64,000 nt of DNA, taken from positions 22,193 through 86,192 of the forward strand of contig CAVTUR010000030.1 in the NCBI GenBank assembly GCA_963737945.1, read 5' to 3'. The position numbers and the translations under genes are program-made. Below, one piece after another: positions 5,902 to 24,242 of the stretch; the first letter of the stretch is position 1; each line of letters opens with the position of its first letter. The DNA is from Blastocatellia bacterium (GTDB taxonomy: Bacteria > Acidobacteriota > Blastocatellia > UBA7656). Under the pieces are notes generated by a model that worked only from the letters and a program-made list of their open reading frames with translations, had not been told where the DNA came from and did no database searches.

Positions 5902-8697
5902 ATGTCCACGCTTCGAGAAATCGCATCCCGGATTCGCGGATTGTTTGCCAGGGATTTCGACGACGATCTCGACGAAGAGCTTCGCTGCCATCTGGAGATG
6001 CTCATTGAAGAGAACATCGGCCGAGGAATGAACCCGGCAGAAGCCCGCAGGGCCGCAAGACGCAGCTTTGGCGGCGTGACACAAACAAAAGAAGCCTTCC
6101 GGGATCAGAGAGGATTGCCCATCGTGGAAACAACCATACAGGACCTTCGCTACGGTTTTCGAATGCTTCGAAAGAATCCAGGGTTCACCGCGGTTGCAGT
6201 GGTCACGCTCGCTCTTGGCATCGGCGCGAACTCTGCGATCTTCAGCGTTCTCGATGCGGTAATGCTCCAGACGCTACCGGTTCGGAATCCTCGACAACTC
6301 CTTCTGGTGAGGTGGACGGCAAAGGATTGGCCCCCGATAGTACAAGACCTCGAGGGCAGCAACCGCAAGGATCCGGAGAGCGGCGGGTGGCTGAGCGAGT
6401 CCGTCCCCTATCCGATGTTCGAAGGGCTCAGATCGCAGAGCACCACCTTGTCTGACGTATTTGCTTTTTCGGCGAACATAAACGGCTTTAACGTGCAGTT
6501 CGAAGGCACGCCACACTCAGCCGCAAGCGAGCCGGTGTCCGGGAACTACTTCAGCGGGCTTGGCGTCCAAACTGTTCTCGGCCGTCCGATTCTCCCAAGC
6601 GACGATGTGGCGACGGCCCCGCCTGTTGCCGTTGTCTCCTACAACTTCTGGAAGAGCAAACTTGGCGGCGACGATTCCGTAGTCGGCAAGCCCATTGCGA
6701 TCAACAGTCTTCCATTTACGATCGTGGGGGTTGCGCCGCCGCGATTCTTCGGCACTCAGCCCGGTGAGGACAATGACCTCTGGGTGACATTAAGAATGTT
6801 CCCGCGGCTGGTGCGGGCGCTGGATTTCGGCGGGCCCCCAAAGCCTGGCAGCGATGCGGAAGCGGCCGCCGCGGCCCACTGGGAGAATGCGAGCACATGG
6901 TGGTTGGTCGTGATGGGCCGTCTGAAACCAGGCGTGAGCGAGGTGCAGGCCCGCGCAGAGATCGATGTCATATTCAACCAAAGCGTAGACGCGATGATCA
7001 CCTCAGATGAGCAGAAAGAGAATCGTCCGGCGTTGAACCTCGCGGCTGGCAACAAAGGACTGGACCAGCTTCGAAGACGGTTTTCAGAGCCGCTGTTCGT
7101 ATTGATGGGCGCGGTCGGGCTGGTACTCCTGATCGCCTGTGCGAACGTGGCAGGCCTGCTGCTCGCGCGAGCAACTGCTCGTCAGAAAGAAATCGCCGTG
7201 CGCTTGAGTCTGGGTGCGCGCCGCCTGCGATTGATCCAGCAATTGCTAACCGAATCACTCCTCCTCGCTGCGATTGGTGGGACGCTCGGGTTGTTACTCT
7301 CACTCTGGATGGGCAAGTTGCTCGTCGCGTTGGTGGCAAGCGGAAGACAGAGCATTACACTTCCACTCGAGGTGAACGGACGCATGCTGATCTTCACTGC
7401 TGGTGTTGCGGTACTCACCGGCGTACTCTTCGGTCTTGCGCCCGCATTCAGCGCGACCCGGATGAGTCTCACTGGAGTGTTGAAAGAAGGCGGCGCCGGG
7501 AATCGGCTGGGGGCTCGGCGATCAAGACTCTCCAAGGCGCTGGTCGCGGCGCAGGTCGCGCTGTCGCTGGTGTTGCTCGTTGGCGCTGGACTCTTTTTGC
7601 GCACGCTGCAAAAACTCGAAAGCGTTCCACTCGGATTCGAGCGCGAGGGATTGCTTCTCTTTTCGGTAGCGCCCGGGCTAAACGGGTACAAAGGCGCGGT
7701 TCTGGCCGAGTACTACCGGCAGGTGCAGGAGCGGATCACGGCAATACCCGGAGTGAGCGCAGTTACCTTTTCGGCACACGGACCGATCGGCGATGGATCA
7801 AGTTCTTCAAGCATTAGAATTCCCGGCGTGACCACCGGCAAGGAGCGGTTTGATCTCAATCGGCATCTGGTAGGGCCGGCTTACTTCGCCACGCTCGGCA
7901 TACCGACGCTCACCGGCCGCGTTCTTGATGAGCGCGATAACGCCGCTGGGCCCCAGGTCGCTGTTGTGAACCAGACACTGGCCCGTAACGCTTTTGGCGA
8001 TGACAATCCCCTGGGCAAGATTCTGAGCTTCGGTAACGCGGCAAAGCCCCGGGATTTCCAGATCATCGGAGTCGTCGGCGACGCCAAGTACCACGACCTG
8101 CGTGAACCGGCGCCGCCGACTGCATACTTTTCACACCTGCAGGCAATCGATTCGGCAAGCTTCATGACGTTTCAGGTTCGTACCAGAACCGAACCGGAGT
8201 CCGTGGTCGCGGCGGTGCGCAACGAAGTCGCCGAAGTGGACGCAAACATTCCGATTACGAAAATCGACACCCTTCTTCAGAGAATCGACAAGGCGTTGTT
8301 GTTCGAGCGGATGTTCTCACGGCTCACCGGTTCATTCGCGCTTCTGGCGCTGGTGCTGGTATGCGTCGGCCTCTACGGAACGATGTCGTACTTCGTGGCG
8401 CGGAGAACGAATGAGATCGGGATCCGGATGGCGCTGGGCGCGCCGGCCGGTGGCGTTTTCCGGATGGTGCTCGGCGAGGGATTGAAGCTCACTTCTGCGG
8501 GCGTCGTGATTGGTCTCGCTGGAGCGGCCCTCGGCACTCGTTTGATATCGAGCGCGCTTTACGAAGTGCCGGCGCTGGACCCGCTGACCTTTGTCGTGGT
8601 AGCTGCGCTGCTAATCGCAGTAGGGCTGATTGCCTGCTATATCCCCGCTCGCCGCGCGATGAAGGTTGACCCGATGGTGGCACTTAGGTACGAGTAG
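5902..8697 (+). CDS. ADOP-type duplicated MacB permease with N-terminal prefix extension (~931 aa)
   Basis: Probable ATG at 5902 (alternative 5890). Prefix DDDLDEELRCHLEMLIEENIGRGM, then [16 protein letters not shown], two lobes, DPMVALRYE. Confidence 0.95.
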   Translation: MSTLREIASRIRGLFARDFDDDLDEELRCHLEMLIEENIGRGMNPAEARRAARRSFGGVTQTKEAFRDQRGLPIVETTIQDLRYGFRMLRKNPGFTAVAVVTLALGIGANSAIFSVLDAVMLQTLPVRNPRQLLLVRWTAKDWPPIVQDLEGSNRKDPESGGWLSESVPYPMFEGLRSQSTTLSDVFAFSANINGFNVQFEGTPHSAASEPVSGNYFSGLGVQTVLGRPILPSDDVATAPPVAVVSYNFWKSKLGGDDSVVGKPIAINSLPFTIVGVAPPRFFGTQPGEDNDLWVTLRMFPRLVRALDFGGPPKPGSDAEAAAAAHWENASTWWLVVMGRLKPGVSEVQARAEIDVIFNQSVDAMITSDEQKENRPALNLAAGNKGLDQLRRRFSEPLFVLMGAVGLVLLIACANVAGLLLARATARQKEIAVRLSLGARRLRLIQQLLTESLLLAAIGGTLGLLLSLWMGKLLVALVASGRQSITLPLEVNGRMLIFTAGVAVLTGVLFGLAPAFSATRMSLTGVLKEGGAGNRLGARRSRLSKALVAAQVALSLVLLVGAGLFLRTLQKLESVPLGFEREGLLLFSVAPGLNGYKGAVLAEYYRQVQERITAIPGVSAVTFSAHGPIGDGSSSSSIRIPGVTTGKERFDLNRHLVGPAYFATLGIPTLTGRVLDERDNAAGPQVAVVNQTLARNAFGDDNPLGKILSFGNAAKPRDFQIIGVVGDAKYHDLREPAPPTAYFSHLQAIDSASFMTFQVRTRTEPESVVAAVRNEVAEVDANIPITKIDTLLQRIDKALLFERMFSRLTGSFALLALVLVCVGLYGTMSYFVARRTNEIGIRMALGAPAGGVFRMVLGEGLKLTSAGVVIGLAGAALGTRLISSALYEVPALDPLTFVVVAALLIAVGLIACYIPARRAMKVDPMVALRYE

Positions 8698-8749
8698 AAA
8701 CCGAGCATCGGTAGATCGCCGGCTGCCGGTTCCGTGCGAACCCATGCTG

Positions 8750-8990
8750 GTTTAGAGAGATTCCGTTCGCGATTACAATAACCGTTTCACGCTCAAGAAC
8801 TCGTTCGCCTCGTTGAGCTTTAGGATTCGAGCTGTTGCCTGCAACCCCTCGTCTGTCGTTCAATCAGAATTCTTCCATCGAAAATGCTCGAACGGTCGGT
8901 TCAACCTGGACGTTCTCTTCGATGTCGATCCAGTCGGGCATAGTTGGGACAGACCGATGTGAAGGTTGGTCCGACATTGGGAAACCCTTT
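8750..8990 (-). pseudogene. possible decayed HNH-endonuclease-like fragment
   Basis: Across three minus-strand frames: EHFRW / DGRILIE / TDEG-QATARILKLNE / ERVLERETVI. This resembles the C-terminal tail of small bacterial HNH proteins (from memory, EHF..DG..I..LT..G..TARIL..N..ER..ER). The HNH core itself is not visible. Confidence 0.35.
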
Positions 8991-9250
8991 CTCGGAATCG
9001 AACAACGAGACTCACCTATCCACGTTTGAACGCTGCGGCTTCCACCTATCTGTCAACGTTTAGCGGACAAGCAACCGCTGGCACGATGATTGGTAGGTGA
9101 GGTCAGTCGTCTGGCCGGCGGCCACTATTGGTCTTTCAACTTTGAACCTCGAGACACATAGCTTTCTGGCGGCTAACACTTATGCGGCATCGAGCGTCTA
9201 CATCAAAGCGAAAAGGTAAATCTGCCATATCAGTGACTGGAGGATAGACG

Positions 9251-10168
9251 ATGAGAAAGACGATGCTCTTCTTTGCGGTTCTCGTTCTTGGTTGTTGTTT
9301 GATCTTCGAACCTGCGGGTGCGCAGGACAGACGGCACCGTAGCACCACCATCTCCACCGACGGGGAAAAGGCGATCACCGATTGCGAGCAGGTTAGGTTG
9401 CGAGTCGGTGACGGCGAGACGTTACGGTCGCAACTCGTGCAGTCGGTTCCCGCGTCTGCGATCTCCACGCTCCAGGTCCGCTCTTCCAGAAACGGAGGTG
9501 TTCACATCCAGGGCTGGAATCGCAATGAGTATTCGATCACCGCGTGCCTGGCAGCCGGGGGCGACAATGCGAACGAGGCAAAAGCGCTCCTCGATCAGCT
9601 CAAGTTATCGGTCATCGATGGCCGGGTAGCAGTCGATGGGCCGAGTTCGCAGGATTGGATCGGCTACCTGATCATCCAGGCACCCAATGGAGCCGTCCTG
9701 GACCTGTCCGGTGTAAACGGGCCTATCGGTGTGAGCGACTTTTCTGGCAACGTCCAGGCTAGTAACCAGAACGGACCGATTAGTTTTCACGACGTCAACG
9801 GCCAGGTGAAGGCTGACGTTCAGAACGGGCCGATTACCGTAACCGGCAGCAGCGGAGATTTTCGCCTGACAGCCCAAAACGGTCCGTTGACTATTGAGCT
9901 GGATGGCAGTCAGTGGTCAGGTGGCGAGCTCGAAGGAAGTACACAGAACGGGCCCCTAACGCTCAAATTGCCAGAGAGCTATCGATCATCGGTGCGAGTC
10001 GATGCGTCGAAGCATTCACCGGTTGAGTGCAGGGCGGTTCAGTGCCAGCAAGCTACACGGACCTGGGATCGCCCAAGCGTGATTCAGTTTGGCGAAGCGT
10101 CGCCTGTGATCCGGCTTTCCACCGTCAATGGACCGGTCACGATTGTGTCGCCCGGCGGGCAACGATGA
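9251..10168 (+). CDS. secreted DUF4097-like (beta-strand repeat, adhesin-type) protein
   Basis: Signal peptide, five NGP-containing repeats (VNGPI, QNGPI, QNGPI, QNGPL, QNGPL) and C-terminal IRLSTVNGPVTI. RBS GGAGG. Confidence 0.8.
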   Translation: MRKTMLFFAVLVLGCCLIFEPAGAQDRRHRSTTISTDGEKAITDCEQVRLRVGDGETLRSQLVQSVPASAISTLQVRSSRNGGVHIQGWNRNEYSITACLAAGGDNANEAKALLDQLKLSVIDGRVAVDGPSSQDWIGYLIIQAPNGAVLDLSGVNGPIGVSDFSGNVQASNQNGPISFHDVNGQVKADVQNGPITVTGSSGDFRLTAQNGPLTIELDGSQWSGGELEGSTQNGPLTLKLPESYRSSVRVDASKHSPVECRAVQCQQATRTWDRPSVIQFGEASPVIRLSTVNGPVTIVSPGGQR

Positions 10169-10220
10169 GTTGATCGTCTGGATAATTTCTCGTCCACCTG
10201 CCCGACTGATCTGTTCGGGC

Positions 10221-10335
10221 CGTCTTTGCGTCTTTGTGGGTCTTGGCGTTTTTTGCGCGAACGTGTTTATGCGGCCGGACTGAATACCTCGCGCAAAGAC
10301 GCAAAGATCCGTAAAGATCCGCAAAGATCGCCAAG
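10221..10335. repeat. inverted array of CGCAAAGA-type octamers (element G)
   Basis: Left arm GTCTTTGCGTCTTTGTGGGTCTTGGCGTTTTTTGCGCGA; right arm TCGCGCAAAGACGCAAAGATCCGTAAAGATCCGCAAAGATCGCCAAG. Confidence 0.85.
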
Positions 10336-10386
10336 CGCTTTGGCGGAACCGTCGAGTCAATCGGAAATCGACAGTGGACAAACTTA

Positions 10387-10609
10387 GTGGAAACGATTTT
10401 TCAAGATATTCGCTATGGGAGTCGCGTACTCCTGAGAAGACCTGCTCTTTTCACCATCATCGCGGTGGCAACGCTCGCGCTTGGCTAGGGGGAACACAGC
10501 GATCTCTAGCGTCGACGACGCGGTACTGCTGCGCAAGCTTCCTTATCCTGATGTGCCCGCACGCCGCGCAACCAGAGTTGATCCCATGGTCGCGCTTCGA
10601 TACGAATGA
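10387..10609 (+). pseudogene. internally deleted ADOP remnant (head fused to tail)
   Basis: GTG-ETIFQDIRYGSRVLLRRPALFTIIAVATLALG-TAG, a frameshift, then NTAISSVDDAVLLRKLPYPD joined directly to [21 protein letters not shown]. Confidence 0.9.
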
Positions 10610-10651
10610 GGATCCAGGATCGGTATTGAAGGGCAAAATGGAGGAAGAACC

Positions 10652-13072
10652 ATGAATGGTTTATTTCAAGACGCGCGTTACGGCGTTCGCGTGTTGATCA
10701 AGACTCCTTCATTCACCGTGATCGCGGTGCTCGCCCTTGCGCTTGGCATCGGGGCGAACTGTGCCATTTTCAGCGTGGTGAATGCCCTGCTGATCAGACC
10801 CCTGGCCTATGGACAATCCGATCGTCTGGTAAAAATCAATCACAGGGACTCGACGTCCAGCGCCGACAACGCTGTTTCGCCTCCCGGCTTCGTTGATTAT
10901 CGAGATCAGAGCCACTCGTACGAGAGCATGTCCGCTGTTTACTTAGGCAACACGGCGTTGAACCTCAGCGAGCAGGGGGAGCCTGAGCGGCTTCAGGACG
11001 GACGCGTCTCGGCTAACTTTTTCACAACTCTCGGCGTCCGCCCAATGCTTGGTCGCGCGTTCGTTGCCGAAGAGGATCAGCCCGGGCGAAACCGCGTCGT
11101 AGTCCTCAGCCATAGTCTCTGGCAGAGGCGATTCGCCGGCGATCGTGATCTTGTTGGGAAAAACATCACACTCAATAGCCAGAGCTTTACGATCATCGGT
11201 GTGATGCCTGCCGGCTTTCGGTGGAAGGGCGATGATCTGTGGAGGCCGCTCGCGTTGGCTCCTGAGAGTTTCGCTCCGGATCAGCGCGGGAGTGAGTACC
11301 TCAGCGTTATTGCCCGGCTCAAACCGGACGTAACGGCTGAACAAGCTCAGTCCGAGATGGATGTGATCGCAGACACAATCCGGCAGAACAATCCCGCCTT
11401 TTATTCAGGGGACCCACACTGGGGGGTGGGGGTGACGCCGCTGCGCGAAGACGTTGTCGGCAGCATCAGGCCGGCTCTGCTGGTGCTGCTGGGCGCGGTT
11501 GGACTCGTGCTGCTGATAGCCTGCGCGAACGTCGCCAGCCTGCTGCTCGCCCGCGCAGCCACGCGACAAAAGGAGATCGCTATTCGTGCCGCGCTTGGCG
11601 CGAGCCGTTTCCACCTCGTACGCCAGTTGCTAGTCGAGAGCCTGCTGCTATCGCTGATCAGCGCCGGTCTGGGCCTGTTTCTTGCCGGCTGGGGTATCGA
11701 TCTGCTGGTGGCGATCGGGGGGAATAATATCCCGAGAGCCCAGGAAATAGGCATTGATGCACGAGTTCTCGGATTTACCGGCATGGTTTCGCTCCTGACC
11801 GCGCTGCTCTTCGGTCTGTTACCGGCAATACAGACCTCAAAGACCGATCTCCAGAGTATGCTCAAAGAGGGCGGACGCGGGTCGACCGGAGGCAGACGTC
11901 GCGCGCGCGCGCTGTTGGTCGTTGCCGATGTCGCGATGTCCCTTGTGCTGCTGATTGGCGCCGGTTTGCTCATAAAGAGCTTCGCACGGTTGGAAAATGT
12001 CAGCCCGGGATTTGCGCCTGAAGGTCTCCTGACGATGCAGGTGTCGCTGCCCGCTTTCAAGTACGGCGAGCCGAACCGGGTAAAAGCTTTTTACGATGGA
12101 GTGCTGGACGAGATCAGGTCCGTACCCGGCGTGCTATCGGTTGGCGCAGTTTCCGATTTGCCGTTGAGCGGTTCGGTCCACTCAGGCAGCTTCAACATTC
12201 AGGGTCGGACGATCGCCCCCGGCGAAGATGAGCTTCACGCGGACTTGAGATCGGCGACGCCGGAGTATTTTCAAACGATGAAGATCCCGTTGCTCCGAGG
12301 TCGTTTCTTCACCGAGCAGGACAACCGGGAGGCTCGTCCCGTGGCGATCATTGACGAGACACTGGCCCAGCACTACTTCCACGATGAAGATCCAATTGGG
12401 AAACACGTCGAGTTTCAACGAGGCAAACCGATTTGGCGGGAGATAGTGGGAGTCGTCGGGCACTTGAAGCACAAAGCTTTGGATGTCGAATTCAAGGATC
12501 AACTCTATGCGCCACACGCTCAGTTATCGAATTCAAATATGTTTCTGGTGGTGCGCGCGGCGAATGATCCGATGAGCCTGGCTTCATCGGTGCGCGCCGC
12601 TGTCAAAGCAATCGACAAAGACCAACCCGTTTACAAAGTGATGACAATGGAACAAGTCCTTGAGAATTCGCTGGCGCAAAGGCGACTGTCAGTAATTCTC
12701 TTAGGAGTCTTTGCCGCCGTGGCAATGGTGTTGGCGGCAGTCGGGCTTTACGGTGTGATTTCATTCTCGGTCACGCAGCGCACGAGAGAGATAGGGATCC
12801 GAATGGCGCTCGGAGCGGAGCGGCCCGACATATTCAAGATGGTGGTGAAGCAAGGCCTGACACTTGCTCTTGCTGGAGTTGGTCTTGGTCTGGTGGTCGC
12901 ATTCGCGCTAACCCGACTGATGTCAAGCCTGCTGTTCGGCGTTACTGCTACAGATCCGATGACATTTGCGGTGGTTCCTATGTTGCTTGCAGGAGTGGCC
13001 CTTGGAGCCAGTCTCGTGCCCGCACGCCGCGCAACCAGGGTTGATCCGATGGTCGCGCTTCGATACGAATGA
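10652..13072 (+). CDS. ADOP-type duplicated MacB permease (806 aa), array gene 1
   Basis: QDARYGVRVLIKTPSF, ALGIGANCAIFS, two MacB lobes, DPMVALRYE. RBS GGAGG. Confidence 0.96.
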   Translation: MNGLFQDARYGVRVLIKTPSFTVIAVLALALGIGANCAIFSVVNALLIRPLAYGQSDRLVKINHRDSTSSADNAVSPPGFVDYRDQSHSYESMSAVYLGNTALNLSEQGEPERLQDGRVSANFFTTLGVRPMLGRAFVAEEDQPGRNRVVVLSHSLWQRRFAGDRDLVGKNITLNSQSFTIIGVMPAGFRWKGDDLWRPLALAPESFAPDQRGSEYLSVIARLKPDVTAEQAQSEMDVIADTIRQNNPAFYSGDPHWGVGVTPLREDVVGSIRPALLVLLGAVGLVLLIACANVASLLLARAATRQKEIAIRAALGASRFHLVRQLLVESLLLSLISAGLGLFLAGWGIDLLVAIGGNNIPRAQEIGIDARVLGFTGMVSLLTALLFGLLPAIQTSKTDLQSMLKEGGRGSTGGRRRARALLVVADVAMSLVLLIGAGLLIKSFARLENVSPGFAPEGLLTMQVSLPAFKYGEPNRVKAFYDGVLDEIRSVPGVLSVGAVSDLPLSGSVHSGSFNIQGRTIAPGEDELHADLRSATPEYFQTMKIPLLRGRFFTEQDNREARPVAIIDETLAQHYFHDEDPIGKHVEFQRGKPIWREIVGVVGHLKHKALDVEFKDQLYAPHAQLSNSNMFLVVRAANDPMSLASSVRAAVKAIDKDQPVYKVMTMEQVLENSLAQRRLSVILLGVFAAVAMVLAAVGLYGVISFSVTQRTREIGIRMALGAERPDIFKMVVKQGLTLALAGVGLGLVVAFALTRLMSSLLFGVTATDPMTFAVVPMLLAGVALGASLVPARRATRVDPMVALRYE

Positions 13073-15613: not shown

Positions 15614-15780
15614 GGATTTTGGATTTTAGATTTTGGATTTTGGATTGCCCGTGTGCCGGGACCCTTATCGAACCGGGGGCGGTCCGCAATCCAAAATCCA
15701 AAATTCTCGCAGGTGCCGGGACCCTTATCGAACCGGGAGCAGTCCGCAATCCAAAATCCAAAATCTAAAATCCAAAATCC
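15614..15780. repeat. inverted GGATTTT heptamer array with internal 60-bp-period duplication (element B)
   Basis: Perfect 35-bp inverted repeat at 15614-15648 / 15746-15780. A 52-bp direct repeat at 15653-15704 and 15713-15764 has 2 mismatches. Confidence 0.95.
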
Positions 15781-15795
15781 CAGTAGGGGGATAAC

Positions 15796-20873: not shown

Positions 20874-23800
20874 ATGACAAACTTATGGCAAGACGTTCGC
20901 TACGGATTCAGGATGCTTCGGAAGCATCCGGGGTTTAGCGCCATTGCGATTGTGACGCTGGCCATGGGTATCGGCGTCAATACGTCGATTTTCAGTATCG
21001 TTAATGCGCTGTTGTTGCGCCCGATACAATTCAAGGACTCGGATCGGCTGGTTCTGTTTTGGAACCACTATCCGGGATTGGAGATCCCGCAGGACTGGCT
21101 TTCGCCCGGCGAATACACCGACGTGAAAGCCCAGTCGGATGTGTTTGAAGAGATGACGATCGCCAACGGCGGAAGCATCAACCTCAACGACGCCGGTGCT
21201 CCTGAGCGAGTCGAAGGCATTCGGGCGTCCTCGAGTTTCTTTTCATTGTTGAATATTCAACCTGTTCAGGGCCGCGCCCTGCTGCCGGACGAAGACGAAC
21301 CGGGCAAGCCGCCCACTGCCGTCATCAGCCACCGGTTGTGGCAGCGTCGATTCGGCGCAGATCCTAACTTCGTCGGCAAGACGATCTCGCTCAATGGCCA
21401 GCCGACGACAGTTGTAGGCGTTCTTCCTGCGAGCCTCTCTCTCGATAAGGAGATGCTGCCTACGGTCGCGGGGATTGAACGGGTCGATGTCATACGGCCA
21501 CTTGCCCTGGACGACGAAGACAGAAGCAATCACGCAAGTGATAACTACACTGTTATGGCACGCCTCAAACCCGGCGTTTCGATGGGCGAGGCGCAAGTCC
21601 AGGTCGACACGATAGTCGCGCGGCTCCAGCTGGCGTATCCGAAGAGTTACCCAGCAACCAGCGGATTCGCGGTAGGCGTGGTTCCGATGCTCGAGCAAGT
21701 CGTGGGCGGTGCCCGGCCCGCCGTTCTGATGTTGTTTGTGGCGGTCGGGTTCGTGTTACTCATTGCCTGCGCGAACGTCGCCAACTTGCTTCTTGCGCGA
21801 GCAGTCGGGCGAGAAAAAGAGTTTTCAATTCGCACCGCTCTCGGGGCAGGGCGTCTGCGCCTCATTCGCCAGTTGCTCGTCGAAAGCATGTTGCTCACGC
21901 TTGCGGCGACGTTAGCGCTGGGCATAGGCGCCAACACCGCGATCTTCAGCGTGGTCAATGCGATGATGCTAAAACCGCTTCCCTATTCGGACCCGACTCG
22001 GCTGGTTTCGGCAGGCTCGGTAAACAGTCTGAATCCGCAAGGTGAGGTCGATGGAGTATCGCCGGCGGATTTCTGGGACTGGAAGGATCAGAGCACGTCG
22101 TTTGAGCAACTCGCCGCTCTATCTGGTGGCGGCGGATTCAGCTTAAAAGACGCGGATCAACCGGATGTCTTCAGTGGCGCACGAGTGTCCTTCAATTTCT
22201 TTCAAACCTTTGGTGTGCAGCCGCTGCTGGGCCGTGCCTTCTCCGCCGAAGACGGGCAGCTCCACGCGCCCGAAACTGTAGTGTTGAGTCACAGGCTCTG
22301 GATGCGACGCTTTGGCGGTGACCCGGCGGTCGTTGGAAAGACTTTCAACAACGCTGACGGCGGTACGACGGTGATCGGAGTGATGGCGCCCGACTTCAAC
22401 TTTCCAAGCTACGCCGACGTATGGGTACCGCTCGCGCGCAACTCAGGCGAGATGCGCAACCGGTCCAATCGCTACTTCAGTGTTGTTGGAAGGATCAGAG
22501 CCGATCAGTCGATTGAAAGCGCCGAAGCTGAGCTTGAGACCATCGCCAGTCGATTGGAGGCCGAGCACCCGCAAGCAAACAGGGGATGGACCGCGCACCT
22601 GACGCCGCTGCGAGACAATGTGATGGGTAGCGTGAGGACTGCGCTGTTCGTGCTGCTGGGTGCGGTCGGTTGTGTCCTGCTCATCGCGTGCACAAACGTC
22701 GCGAATCTGCTGCTCGCTCGCGCGGCGTCGAGGCGGAGGGAGATGGCGATTCGGCTCGCGCTCGGCGCCGGCCGCGCCAGGATCATGAGGCAGTTGCTCA
22801 CCGAAAGCCTGGTGCTTGGCATCGCGGGCGGCGCCATCGGGTTGGCGTTTGCAGTGTGGGGTCTGGACCTGCTGATCGGAATTCTGCCCTCCAGGGAGGC
22901 ATTCCAACTCCCGGTCGAGATCCGCATCGATCGAATGGTCATGTTGTTGACCCTTGCCGTCTCGGCCCTCACCGGGATTGTGTTTGGCCTCGTCCCCGCA
23001 TGGCAGGCGTCACGGCCCGATGTTGGCGAGTGGCTGAAAGAAGGCGACCGCTCTGGATCGAGCGCCGGTCACAAGCGAACTCGCAGCGCTCTGGTCGTCG
23101 CTGAAATTGCTATTGCTCTTGTCTTGCTTGTCGGCGCCGGGCTGCTTGTCCAAAGCTTCGTCAGGTTGAGACACGTTGATCTCGGATACGACCCGATTGG
23201 TCTGATGACGATGTGGGTGCCGGCGTCGCCAGCCAGATATCCCGACAATGAAACTAAGGCGCGGTTCTATAAGCGGCTCCTCGAACGGGTTTCTCAAGTT
23301 CCCGGCACAGAAGACGTCGCGTTGAGCTCGGCGCCGTGGTTCGGCTTTCTCAATTTTCAATTCAACATCGCTGACGAAACGTTGCCGGCCGGCGATGCCA
23401 CCGTTCGTTACAGCTCAATCGCCCCGGACTACTTCAGGGTGCTCAGAGCTCAAGTTCGCTCCGGTCGCGATTTCGATGATCGGGATGACAGCAGAGCTCC
23501 GAGCGTCGCAATCATCAATGAAGCTCTTGCGCGGCGGTACTTCCCGGAGGGCAGTCCGATCGGAAGAAGGATTGTGATTGGGTATCTTGGCCGCAGATTG
23601 ACACCCGAGATAGTTGGCGTATCGGCGGACATCAAACAAGAGGAATTGGGGGCGCCAACAAAACCCGAAGTATACGTTCCATATCAGCAGGTCCCCTGGC
23701 TGGGAGCAGCACTAGTAATTCGCGCTGCGAGGGGTGACCCGATGACCCTAAAGAAAGACCTGCAGCAGGCGATTTGGGAAGTCGACAAGGACCTTCCGGT

Positions 23801-24242
23801 TTCCGAGGCGTCAACGGTCGAGGGGCACCTGTCGGATCTCGTGGCCGAGCCTCGGCTGTACACGTTGCTGCTCGGTGCGTTCGCGACTGCCGCGTTGATT
23901 CTTGCCTCGATTGGGATCTACGGTGTTATGTCGTATTCGGTAACCGAACGTACACGCGAGATAGGCATTCGCATGGCGTTGGGTGCGAAGCGTCTGGATG
24001 TGCTTACGTTCGTGGTGAGGCAGGGTTTGTTACTGGCGGTGACTGGCGTGGCGATCGGCGTTGTGTTGGCTTTCGCGTTGACTAGAGTGATTTCGAGCCA
24101 GCTGTACGGCATCTCTGCCACCGACCCGTTGACCTTTACATTGATACCGTTGCTGCTTGCATCGGTGACCGTGGCGGCCTGTTTTGTGCCGGCGCGTCGC
24201 GCAACGAAAGTCGATCCGATGATCGCACTGCGATGCGAATGA
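20874..24242 (+). CDS. chimeric ADOP permease (1122 aa; half unit fused to a near-complete unit), array gene 5
   Basis: Contains the head motif twice (MGIGVNTSIFS near residue 30 and [11 protein letters not shown] near residue 348) and [15 protein letters not shown] twice. The junction reads RQLLVESMLLTLAA|[14 protein letters not shown] at ~21897-21915. Confidence 0.92.
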   Translation: MTNLWQDVRYGFRMLRKHPGFSAIAIVTLAMGIGVNTSIFSIVNALLLRPIQFKDSDRLVLFWNHYPGLEIPQDWLSPGEYTDVKAQSDVFEEMTIANGGSINLNDAGAPERVEGIRASSSFFSLLNIQPVQGRALLPDEDEPGKPPTAVISHRLWQRRFGADPNFVGKTISLNGQPTTVVGVLPASLSLDKEMLPTVAGIERVDVIRPLALDDEDRSNHASDNYTVMARLKPGVSMGEAQVQVDTIVARLQLAYPKSYPATSGFAVGVVPMLEQVVGGARPAVLMLFVAVGFVLLIACANVANLLLARAVGREKEFSIRTALGAGRLRLIRQLLVESMLLTLAATLALGIGANTAIFSVVNAMMLKPLPYSDPTRLVSAGSVNSLNPQGEVDGVSPADFWDWKDQSTSFEQLAALSGGGGFSLKDADQPDVFSGARVSFNFFQTFGVQPLLGRAFSAEDGQLHAPETVVLSHRLWMRRFGGDPAVVGKTFNNADGGTTVIGVMAPDFNFPSYADVWVPLARNSGEMRNRSNRYFSVVGRIRADQSIESAEAELETIASRLEAEHPQANRGWTAHLTPLRDNVMGSVRTALFVLLGAVGCVLLIACTNVANLLLARAASRRREMAIRLALGAGRARIMRQLLTESLVLGIAGGAIGLAFAVWGLDLLIGILPSREAFQLPVEIRIDRMVMLLTLAVSALTGIVFGLVPAWQASRPDVGEWLKEGDRSGSSAGHKRTRSALVVAEIAIALVLLVGAGLLVQSFVRLRHVDLGYDPIGLMTMWVPASPARYPDNETKARFYKRLLERVSQVPGTEDVALSSAPWFGFLNFQFNIADETLPAGDATVRYSSIAPDYFRVLRAQVRSGRDFDDRDDSRAPSVAIINEALARRYFPEGSPIGRRIVIGYLGRRLTPEIVGVSADIKQEELGAPTKPEVYVPYQQVPWLGAALVIRAARGDPMTLKKDLQQAIWEVDKDLPVSEASTVEGHLSDLVAEPRLYTLLLGAFATAALILASIGIYGVMSYSVTERTREIGIRMALGAKRLDVLTFVVRQGLLLAVTGVAIGVVLAFALTRVISSQLYGISATDPLTFTLIPLLLASVTVAACFVPARRATKVDPMIALRCE

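Follow-up and report, generated by a model that had tools for sequence, protein, structure and literature searches.

Ectopic gene conversion between paralogs is known in bacteria from the duplicated tuf genes of Salmonella and from the rRNA operons, in which the paralogs are already highly similar and are repeatedly homogenised. Silent-cassette and orphan-module systems, such as pilE/pilS of Neisseria and the orphan C-terminal arrays of Rhs/CDI, recombine through conserved boxes. In E. coli, RecA-dependent exchange usually needs a perfect match of 23-27 bp. Tandem arrays of paralogs that follow birth-and-death evolution also accumulate deletion pseudogenes, formed by an internal deletion with a non-homologous junction and subsequent decay. 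On the evolution of arrays of ADOP permeases (MacB/FtsX-type; TIGR03434) we found no literature.

Here, we describe a short ADOP stub at the leader of such an array. The stretch of DNA analysed (64,000 nt; hereafter, the window; G000:C30:22193-86192) belongs to a 7.3-Mb draft genome of 33 contigs in which many ADOP paralogs are present. Co-oriented genes of ADOP-family permeases occupy window positions 5890-34813; the intact array genes score 931-1328 bits against NCBIfam TIGR03434 in a profile search (cutoff 622.3), and each array ADOP has two MacB_PCD and two FtsX domains (Pfam). The stub lies between a gene for a protein of 305 residues (9251-10168; hereafter, the neighbour gene) and gene 1, the first intact gene of the array.

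Anatomy and setting of the stub

The initial annotation had read this segment as about 55 codons of an ADOP head, with a TAG and a frameshift, joined to an ADOP tail, roughly 2.2 kb of interior being gone; the translations and the placement of the pieces on a profile confirm that reading (Table 1). In frame 1, from position 10387, the stub reads VETIFQDIRYGSRVLLRRPALFTIIAVATLALG and then meets the TAG at 10486-10488 (codon 34 of the translation). A 2-nt deletion just past the TAG shifts the reading from frame 1 to frame 2, which continues as GNTAISSVDDAVLLRKLPYPD straight into the 18 residues of the tail and ends with a TGA at 10607-10609. The head remnant reads CCTTATCCTGAT just before the junction, which falls between GAT (10550-10552) and GTG (10553-10555). 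On a profile of 805 positions, built from the window's own ADOPs, the pieces align to positions 1-29, 33-52 and 788-805 with 27-38 bits; positions 53-787, or about 735 codons (some 2.2 kb), are missing.

Table 1. Coordinates of the stub, its partner gene and comparable remnants (positions without prefix are those of the window)
Feature	Position	Strand	Description
ADOP head remnant (TM1 region)	10387..10552	+	55 codons, GTG start, in-frame TAG, 2-nt deletion
Deletion junction	10552..10553	+	CCT GAT / GTG CCC; head codon 55 joined to tail codon -18
ADOP tail remnant	10553..10609	+	18 codons and TGA; 55/57 to gene 1 tail
Spacer	10610..10651	+	42 nt, GGAGG ahead of gene 1 ATG; GGATCCAGG...GGAGGAAGAACC ATG
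Array gene 1	10652..13072	+	intact 806-aa ADOP permease, TIGR03434 1043 bits; two MacB_PCD and two FtsX
Gene 1 tail, partner of stub tail	13016..13072	+	differs only at 13039 (G vs A) and 13048 (G vs C)
G011 mini-ADOP	L011:7965-8187 (G011:C23)	-	between A2 and A3 (gene-3 ortholog); 13 head codons MEALWQDIRYGLR and 62 tail codons, out of frame
G007 head-only stub	L013:7761-7907 (G007:C99)	-	49 codons ending ...LLRPLP, then two stops
Own-genome head-only stub	C22:134260-134370		outside the window; MEALLNDLRFGIRMMTRRPRFTLVVLITIALGMGAN then stop; about 115 nt past an intact ADOP, unrelated sequence after

Like the TIGR03434 proteins, the stub has a head and a tail that align to the first 52 and the last 18 positions of the profile; unlike them, it is without 735 of the 805 positions and is interrupted by a stop codon and a frameshift. 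It falls short of a full-length match (about 800 aa) at the curated cutoff of 622.3 bits, and it has neither of the periplasmic domains and none of TM2-8, and hence not the pairs of MacB_PCD and FtsX domains found in the intact genes. It has the features of a deletion pseudogene, namely homology to both ends of the gene, an absent interior and a single junction, together with disabling mutations and changes at conserved positions. The stub is the remnant of an ADOP member and not itself a member. The damage is best seen when the head is compared with those of 37 intact paralogs: Ile30 is replaced by the TAG, the 2-nt deletion falls at codon 32, and three substitutions, F37S, V40D and P47K, follow. 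Phe37 is invariant (37 of the 37 paralogs), and the V40D and P47K changes are absent in all 37. The head damage, at roughly 3-4%, is close to the 2/57 of the tail and, judged by this similarity, head and tail appear to have drifted for a comparable time.

Since the junction lies in a draft of 33 contigs with many paralogs, a chimeric join or a collapse during assembly might have produced it. This is most improbable. A Logan contig (ERR11718635_1350663, L021; 2,229 nt), retrieved by an exact-protein look-up of the neighbour gene and made by a different assembler, maybe from the same reads as the genome, agrees at 100% with window positions 8428-10656, a segment that takes in the TAG, the frameshift and the junction as well as the tail. 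Moreover, no repeat by which an assembler might be misled is common to the end of the head and the start of the tail, the two longest stretches of exact match between the tails of the stub and gene 1 are 23 and 24 nt, and the stub carries private mutations in head and tail alike. The Logan contig ends at window position 10656, 5 nt into gene 1, which could reflect low coverage or a strain-level branch of the assembly graph.

The place of the stub at the leader of the array, 42 nt ahead of gene 1, and the synonymous nature of both differences in the tail (see below) would suit a functional element, such as a leader peptide or a 5' element that regulates the array, with the tail similarity kept by selection. 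A function of this kind is nevertheless very unlikely. Read directly, the sequence ahead of the GTG has no Shine-Dalgarno motif; the stop at codon 34 is followed by the frameshift; radical changes affect invariant positions; and none of 11 same-genus loci has an orthologous stub. Searches within the stub returned no promoter, no terminator and no Rfam match. Expression of the downstream genes need not have been disturbed, as the 42-nt spacer and the ribosome-binding site (RBS) of gene 1 would have survived the deletion.

Two further elements of the region were recorded. The neighbour gene has a weak match to DUF4097 (toastrack), under the Pfam cutoff; throughout the genus, as well as in contigs from soil metagenomes, it is conserved (65-85% at the amino acid level) to the left of ADOP arrays, the array behind it being variable. 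Just 5' of the stub, at window 10218-10335, is a palindromic element with three copies of the short tandem repeat CGCAAAGATC and with arms TCTTTGCGTCTTTG/CAAAGACGCAAAGA. This element has matches at dozens of loci, on both strands and in many genomes of the genus; its sub-threshold hit to Rfam mir-42 is a generic hairpin resemblance only.

Relationships of the tail and of the head

The initial annotation had also drawn attention to the 57-nt tail, which matches the tail of gene 1 at 55 positions, the tails of other paralogs being far lower. This was borne out when the last 54 nt and the stop codon of the 46 ADOP tails in the genome (that of the stub and 45 others) were aligned at the DNA level: the 1,035 pairs have a mean identity of 37.9/57 (sd 4.4) with the 99.9th percentile at 50, the pair formed by the stub and gene 1 is the maximum, well above the genome-wide background, and the next best pair reaches 50. 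The two mismatches, at 10576 (AGA/AGG) and 10585 (CCC/CCG), are both synonymous third positions. Paralogs and relatives whose tail peptide is identical or almost so (VPARRAT, then Lys or Arg, then ten more residues) reach only 43-48/57 against the stub; because synonymous sites are shared between the stub and gene 1 beyond that level, protein constraint does not explain 55/57. In an all-vs-all blastn of all ADOP pieces of the genome (about 57), this tail was the only paralogous segment at 88% identity or more. Across 21 related loci (about 75 ADOPs), at 90% or more, it was again the sole coding match; one tandem repeat in a spacer was the other match. In the window, the spacer between genes 2 and 3 (15614-15790) contains two direct repeat copies of about 50 nt with 96% identity, which are part of hairpin elements.

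The stretch of identity runs from the deletion junction to the stop codon and ends exactly there. Beyond the stop codon the flanks are unrelated: 42 nt of spacer follow the stub, whereas the spacer after gene 1 has about 100 nt and bears a hairpin. On the 5' side the flank of the tract was erased by the deletion. As in the conversion of tuf genes and rRNA operons, a short tract stands far over the paralog background, synonymous sites included, and ends where homology ends; unlike in those systems, the family is saturated at synonymous sites, there is a single tract of 57 nt and one of the partners is a pseudogene. The alignments support an unusually recent common ancestry of the two tails. The tails of relatives are 31-50/57 identical to both the stub and the gene 1 copies; at this level they are saturated and do not polarise the two differences. 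The best foreign tail is that of the first array gene of one relative (G011 A1; 48-50/57), other members of the A1 clade not being close, and the last 154 nt of gene 1 are 81% identical to the same gene, with no enrichment among other A1-clade genes. Gene 1 is without a close ortholog; its nearest relative, G010 n4, has 61% DNA identity.

The head has other affinities. Its identity to the head of gene 1 is below about 70%, and to any head at most 75-78%. In its own genome the head of gene 2 comes closest at the DNA level (75% over 84 nt), and the top matches from 30 relatives have 72-78% identity over the conserved TM1 core. As a protein, the head is most similar to the fourth array gene of another relative (G009 n4; 39/56 aa, 72% at the DNA level), a lineage with no intact ortholog within the window. 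The head and the tail of the stub therefore have different nearest relatives, the head not being gene-1-like and the tail matching gene 1 at 55/57.

By the neighbour gene, the orthologous locus can be recognised in at least 11 genomes of the same genus or the same family, and in all of them an intact ADOP begins 30-260 nt after that gene. This intact ADOP belongs to the A1 clade, whose head is not close to that of the stub. We considered the possibility that the stub is what remains of this A1-clade first gene and rejected it for the head, which has no A1-like DNA similarity, whereas a head-only stub in G007 is 81% identical to A1 (see below). An intact counterpart of the stub, or a closer relative, was not identified among 30 related genomes, JGI metagenome contigs and exact-protein look-ups; in these same collections the best amino acid identity for the neighbour gene was about 85%, and between genomes of the same genus orthologous DNA has an identity of about 80%. 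Because no relative close enough was found, an ancestral state with an intact gene is one that we infer rather than observe.

Proposed origin of the stub

We consider it probable, at roughly 0.6, that the stub is a non-functional ADOP deletion scar whose tail owes its near-identity to an exchange limited to the homologous 3' box. Under this scheme, an ADOP permease gene (gene 0) would once have been first in the array, directly 5' of gene 1. An illegitimate, that is non-homologous, deletion would have taken out some 735 codons between head codon 55 and the last 18 codons of gene 0. What remained would be the 5' end of gene 0, the final 57 nt of that gene and, together with the RBS of gene 1, the native spacer of 42 nt. 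The tails of gene 0 and gene 1 would have become alike through an exchange that did not reach beyond their 3' boxes, by ectopic gene conversion or by unequal crossover within the tails; alternatively, a break may have been repaired with the neighbour's tail as template. Most likely, the exchange would have come about while gene 0 still had the length to offer homology, or else a single repair event would have brought both the exchange and the deletion; neutral decay of the stub would have followed. From the sequences compared we infer how the exchange took place, in which direction, and at what point with respect to the deletion.

Several features of the locus bear on this scheme. The deletion was illegitimate rather than box-mediated, because the junction joins head and tail sequences that are not homologous to each other. 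The end of the identity at the stop codon, where the homology of the paralogs ends, is what would be expected of an exchange limited by homology; for a duplication whose breakpoints lie outside the boxes, an end on the stop codon would have to be a coincidence. A conversion after the deletion is unlikely, as only 57 nt of about 80% identical homology would have been left, below the perfect match usually needed for RecA-dependent exchange. Counting against an exchange, paralogs with only some 75-80% identity should seldom undergo conversion, and the family (the ADOPs of the same genome and 21 related loci) yielded no further case. Moreover, that both changes in the tail are synonymous is mildly unexpected for a stub in neutral decay, unless the changes are on the gene 1 side.

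The initial annotation had offered a recent duplication and deletion, or gene conversion, at the array leader. The deletion scar and the recent ancestry of the tail (the maximum of the 1,035 pairs) both stand; a simple duplication of gene 1 does not, the two heads being less than about 70% identical. A more elaborate duplication is possible, though we hold it to be the less likely course: gene 1 would have undergone a tandem duplication, for instance through unequal crossover involving the tails of gene 0 and gene 1, which would place the tail of the copy ahead of the 42-nt spacer, and a deletion of about 4.7 kb would then have joined head codon 55 of gene 0 to the tail of the upstream copy. 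The tail of the stub would in this case literally be a gene-1 tail and not a converted gene-0 tail. Such a course accounts for a tail that is 55/57 identical to gene 1 beside a head unrelated to gene 1, and a crossover inside the tail boxes would also account for the identity that ends at the stop codon; in addition, the array content varies much among species, so that duplications and losses do happen. It requires, however, a duplication that left no other trace and a larger deletion, and there are no recent ADOP duplicates anywhere in the genome. We favour deletion with an exchange between the 3' boxes over duplication followed by deletion; both take two steps, and the available data fit both.

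Two other rearrangements were examined and discarded. A tandem duplication with a junction between the downstream and the upstream gene predicts that the head is that of the downstream gene and the tail that of the upstream gene, and the opposite is seen. A chimera formed by unequal crossover, with gene 1 as the hybrid, is at odds with the unrelated spacers that follow the stub and gene 1, and the heads of gene 1 and gene 2 are not close.

Scars and turnover in ADOP arrays

In a tree of 37 full-length array proteins, the content of the arrays differs strongly among species. The array of G011, for instance, has orthologs of genes 3, 4 and 7, and has A1 and A2 in place of the stub, gene 1 and gene 2; it is without a gene-1 ortholog. 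A search of the relatives for stubs of this type, as suggested with the initial annotation, recovered one independent head-tail stub, in G011, and one head-only stub, in G007 (Table 1). For the G011 mini-ADOP, the head DNA, including the RBS region, has its best match in the head of gene 2 of the window, and the tail is 80% identical at the DNA level to the gene 2 tail, which is the level of orthologs. By these matches, the G011 mini-ADOP is a plain internal deletion of a single gene, the gene-2 ortholog, and is independent of the stub in the window. The head-only stub of G007 is 81% identical to the head of G011 A1, is directly followed by a spacer with a heptamer-repeat hairpin and is separated by some 5.9 kb from the conserved neighbour gene. 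The genome that holds the window has a head-only stub of its own on another contig (C22; Table 1). A hotspot for breakpoints near the LPYPD motif was considered and rejected: the heads end at codon 55 in the window, at about codon 51 in G007, at codon 13 in G011 and at codon 36 in C22, with no convincing clustering.

About ten other ADOPs of the genome are split by frameshifts or stop codons into 2-6 ORF pieces (C6:47000-75500, C26:18478-23901, C31:12173-14900 and C18:302811-305388), and in the array on C6 the degradation is heavy. The split genes are either genuine pseudogenes or the result of local consensus errors in the draft. Within the window, gene 5 (20874-24242) encodes an in-frame fusion of 1,122 aa that matches ADOP profile positions 1-333 and then 25-805 (1.4 units). 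The gene 5 fusion is another deletion product of the same array, one in which the reading frame was kept open.

A further suggestion of the initial annotation was that the conserved boxes at head and tail may act as landing pads, at which recombination swaps the variable interior. In its full form, the boxes would let the extracytoplasmic interiors swap between members of the array, and the stub would be an empty acceptor or a by-product. In line with this, one tail box was clearly exchanged or shared recently, and head-tail stubs occur in the same array in two species. Regular box-mediated swapping should, however, leave the boxes homogenised and the orthologs mosaic, and neither is observed. 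Apart from the stub and gene 1, no head or tail pair is homogenised (1,035 tail pairs; all-vs-all DNA comparison in the genome itself and in 21 related loci): no other tail pair exceeds 50/57, no two heads match at 88% or more, and paralogs are saturated at the synonymous sites of their boxes. Orthologs are colinear, with an identity of about 80% that is uniform through boxes and interior; in the pairs g3/G011-A3, g4/G011-A4 and g8/G013-n1, identity per window of 40 codons is 72-89%, with the boxes the same as the interior and no mosaic breaks. Furthermore, the head and the tail of the G011 stub come from the same gene, the junction of the stub in the window is non-homologous, and the stub itself is broken by a stop and a frameshift. 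The landing-pad proposal is not supported by these comparisons and we regard it as highly improbable. The same low standing applies to a weaker form, in which rare box-mediated crossovers contribute to the expansion of the array. Equally doubtful is the broader notion that the 3' tail box is an occasional substrate of homeologous recombination that expands, contracts or reshuffles orphan-permease arrays, the stub being the footprint, caught in the act, of a box-mediated exchange that contributes to diversifying the extracytoplasmic domains across Acidobacteria.

The comparison with cassette systems is to the same effect. ADOP arrays resemble pilE/pilS and Rhs/CDI in having variable regions with conserved flanks in tandem arrays, and truncated copies; unlike in those systems, the boxes are not near-identical between copies, the orthologs are without mosaicism, and the variable part is gone from the truncated copies rather than stored in them. 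Like birth-and-death arrays, the locus combines an internal deletion, a non-homologous junction and subsequent decay with independent scars in G011, in G007 and on C22 of the same genome and with some ten frameshifted ADOPs. Nothing essential differs from such arrays; the one unusual trait is the near-identical tail that the stub shares with the adjacent intact gene. Deletion scars are a routine by-product of turnover in the ADOP family.

The stub is a case of ordinary gene-family turnover, in which the known process of pseudogenisation by internal deletion is joined by an isolated exchange between paralogs, and not a new system. It is properly annotated as an ADOP pseudogene remnant and not as a small ORF, the first functional gene of the array being gene 1 at 10652. 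The ADOP families of Acidobacteria, which are large and functionally unexplained, evolve by frequent loss, through internal deletions, frameshifts and occasional in-frame fusions. Exactly one exchange between paralogs is detectable in the data examined, which speaks against a major role of concerted evolution or of cassette shuffling in the ADOP family.
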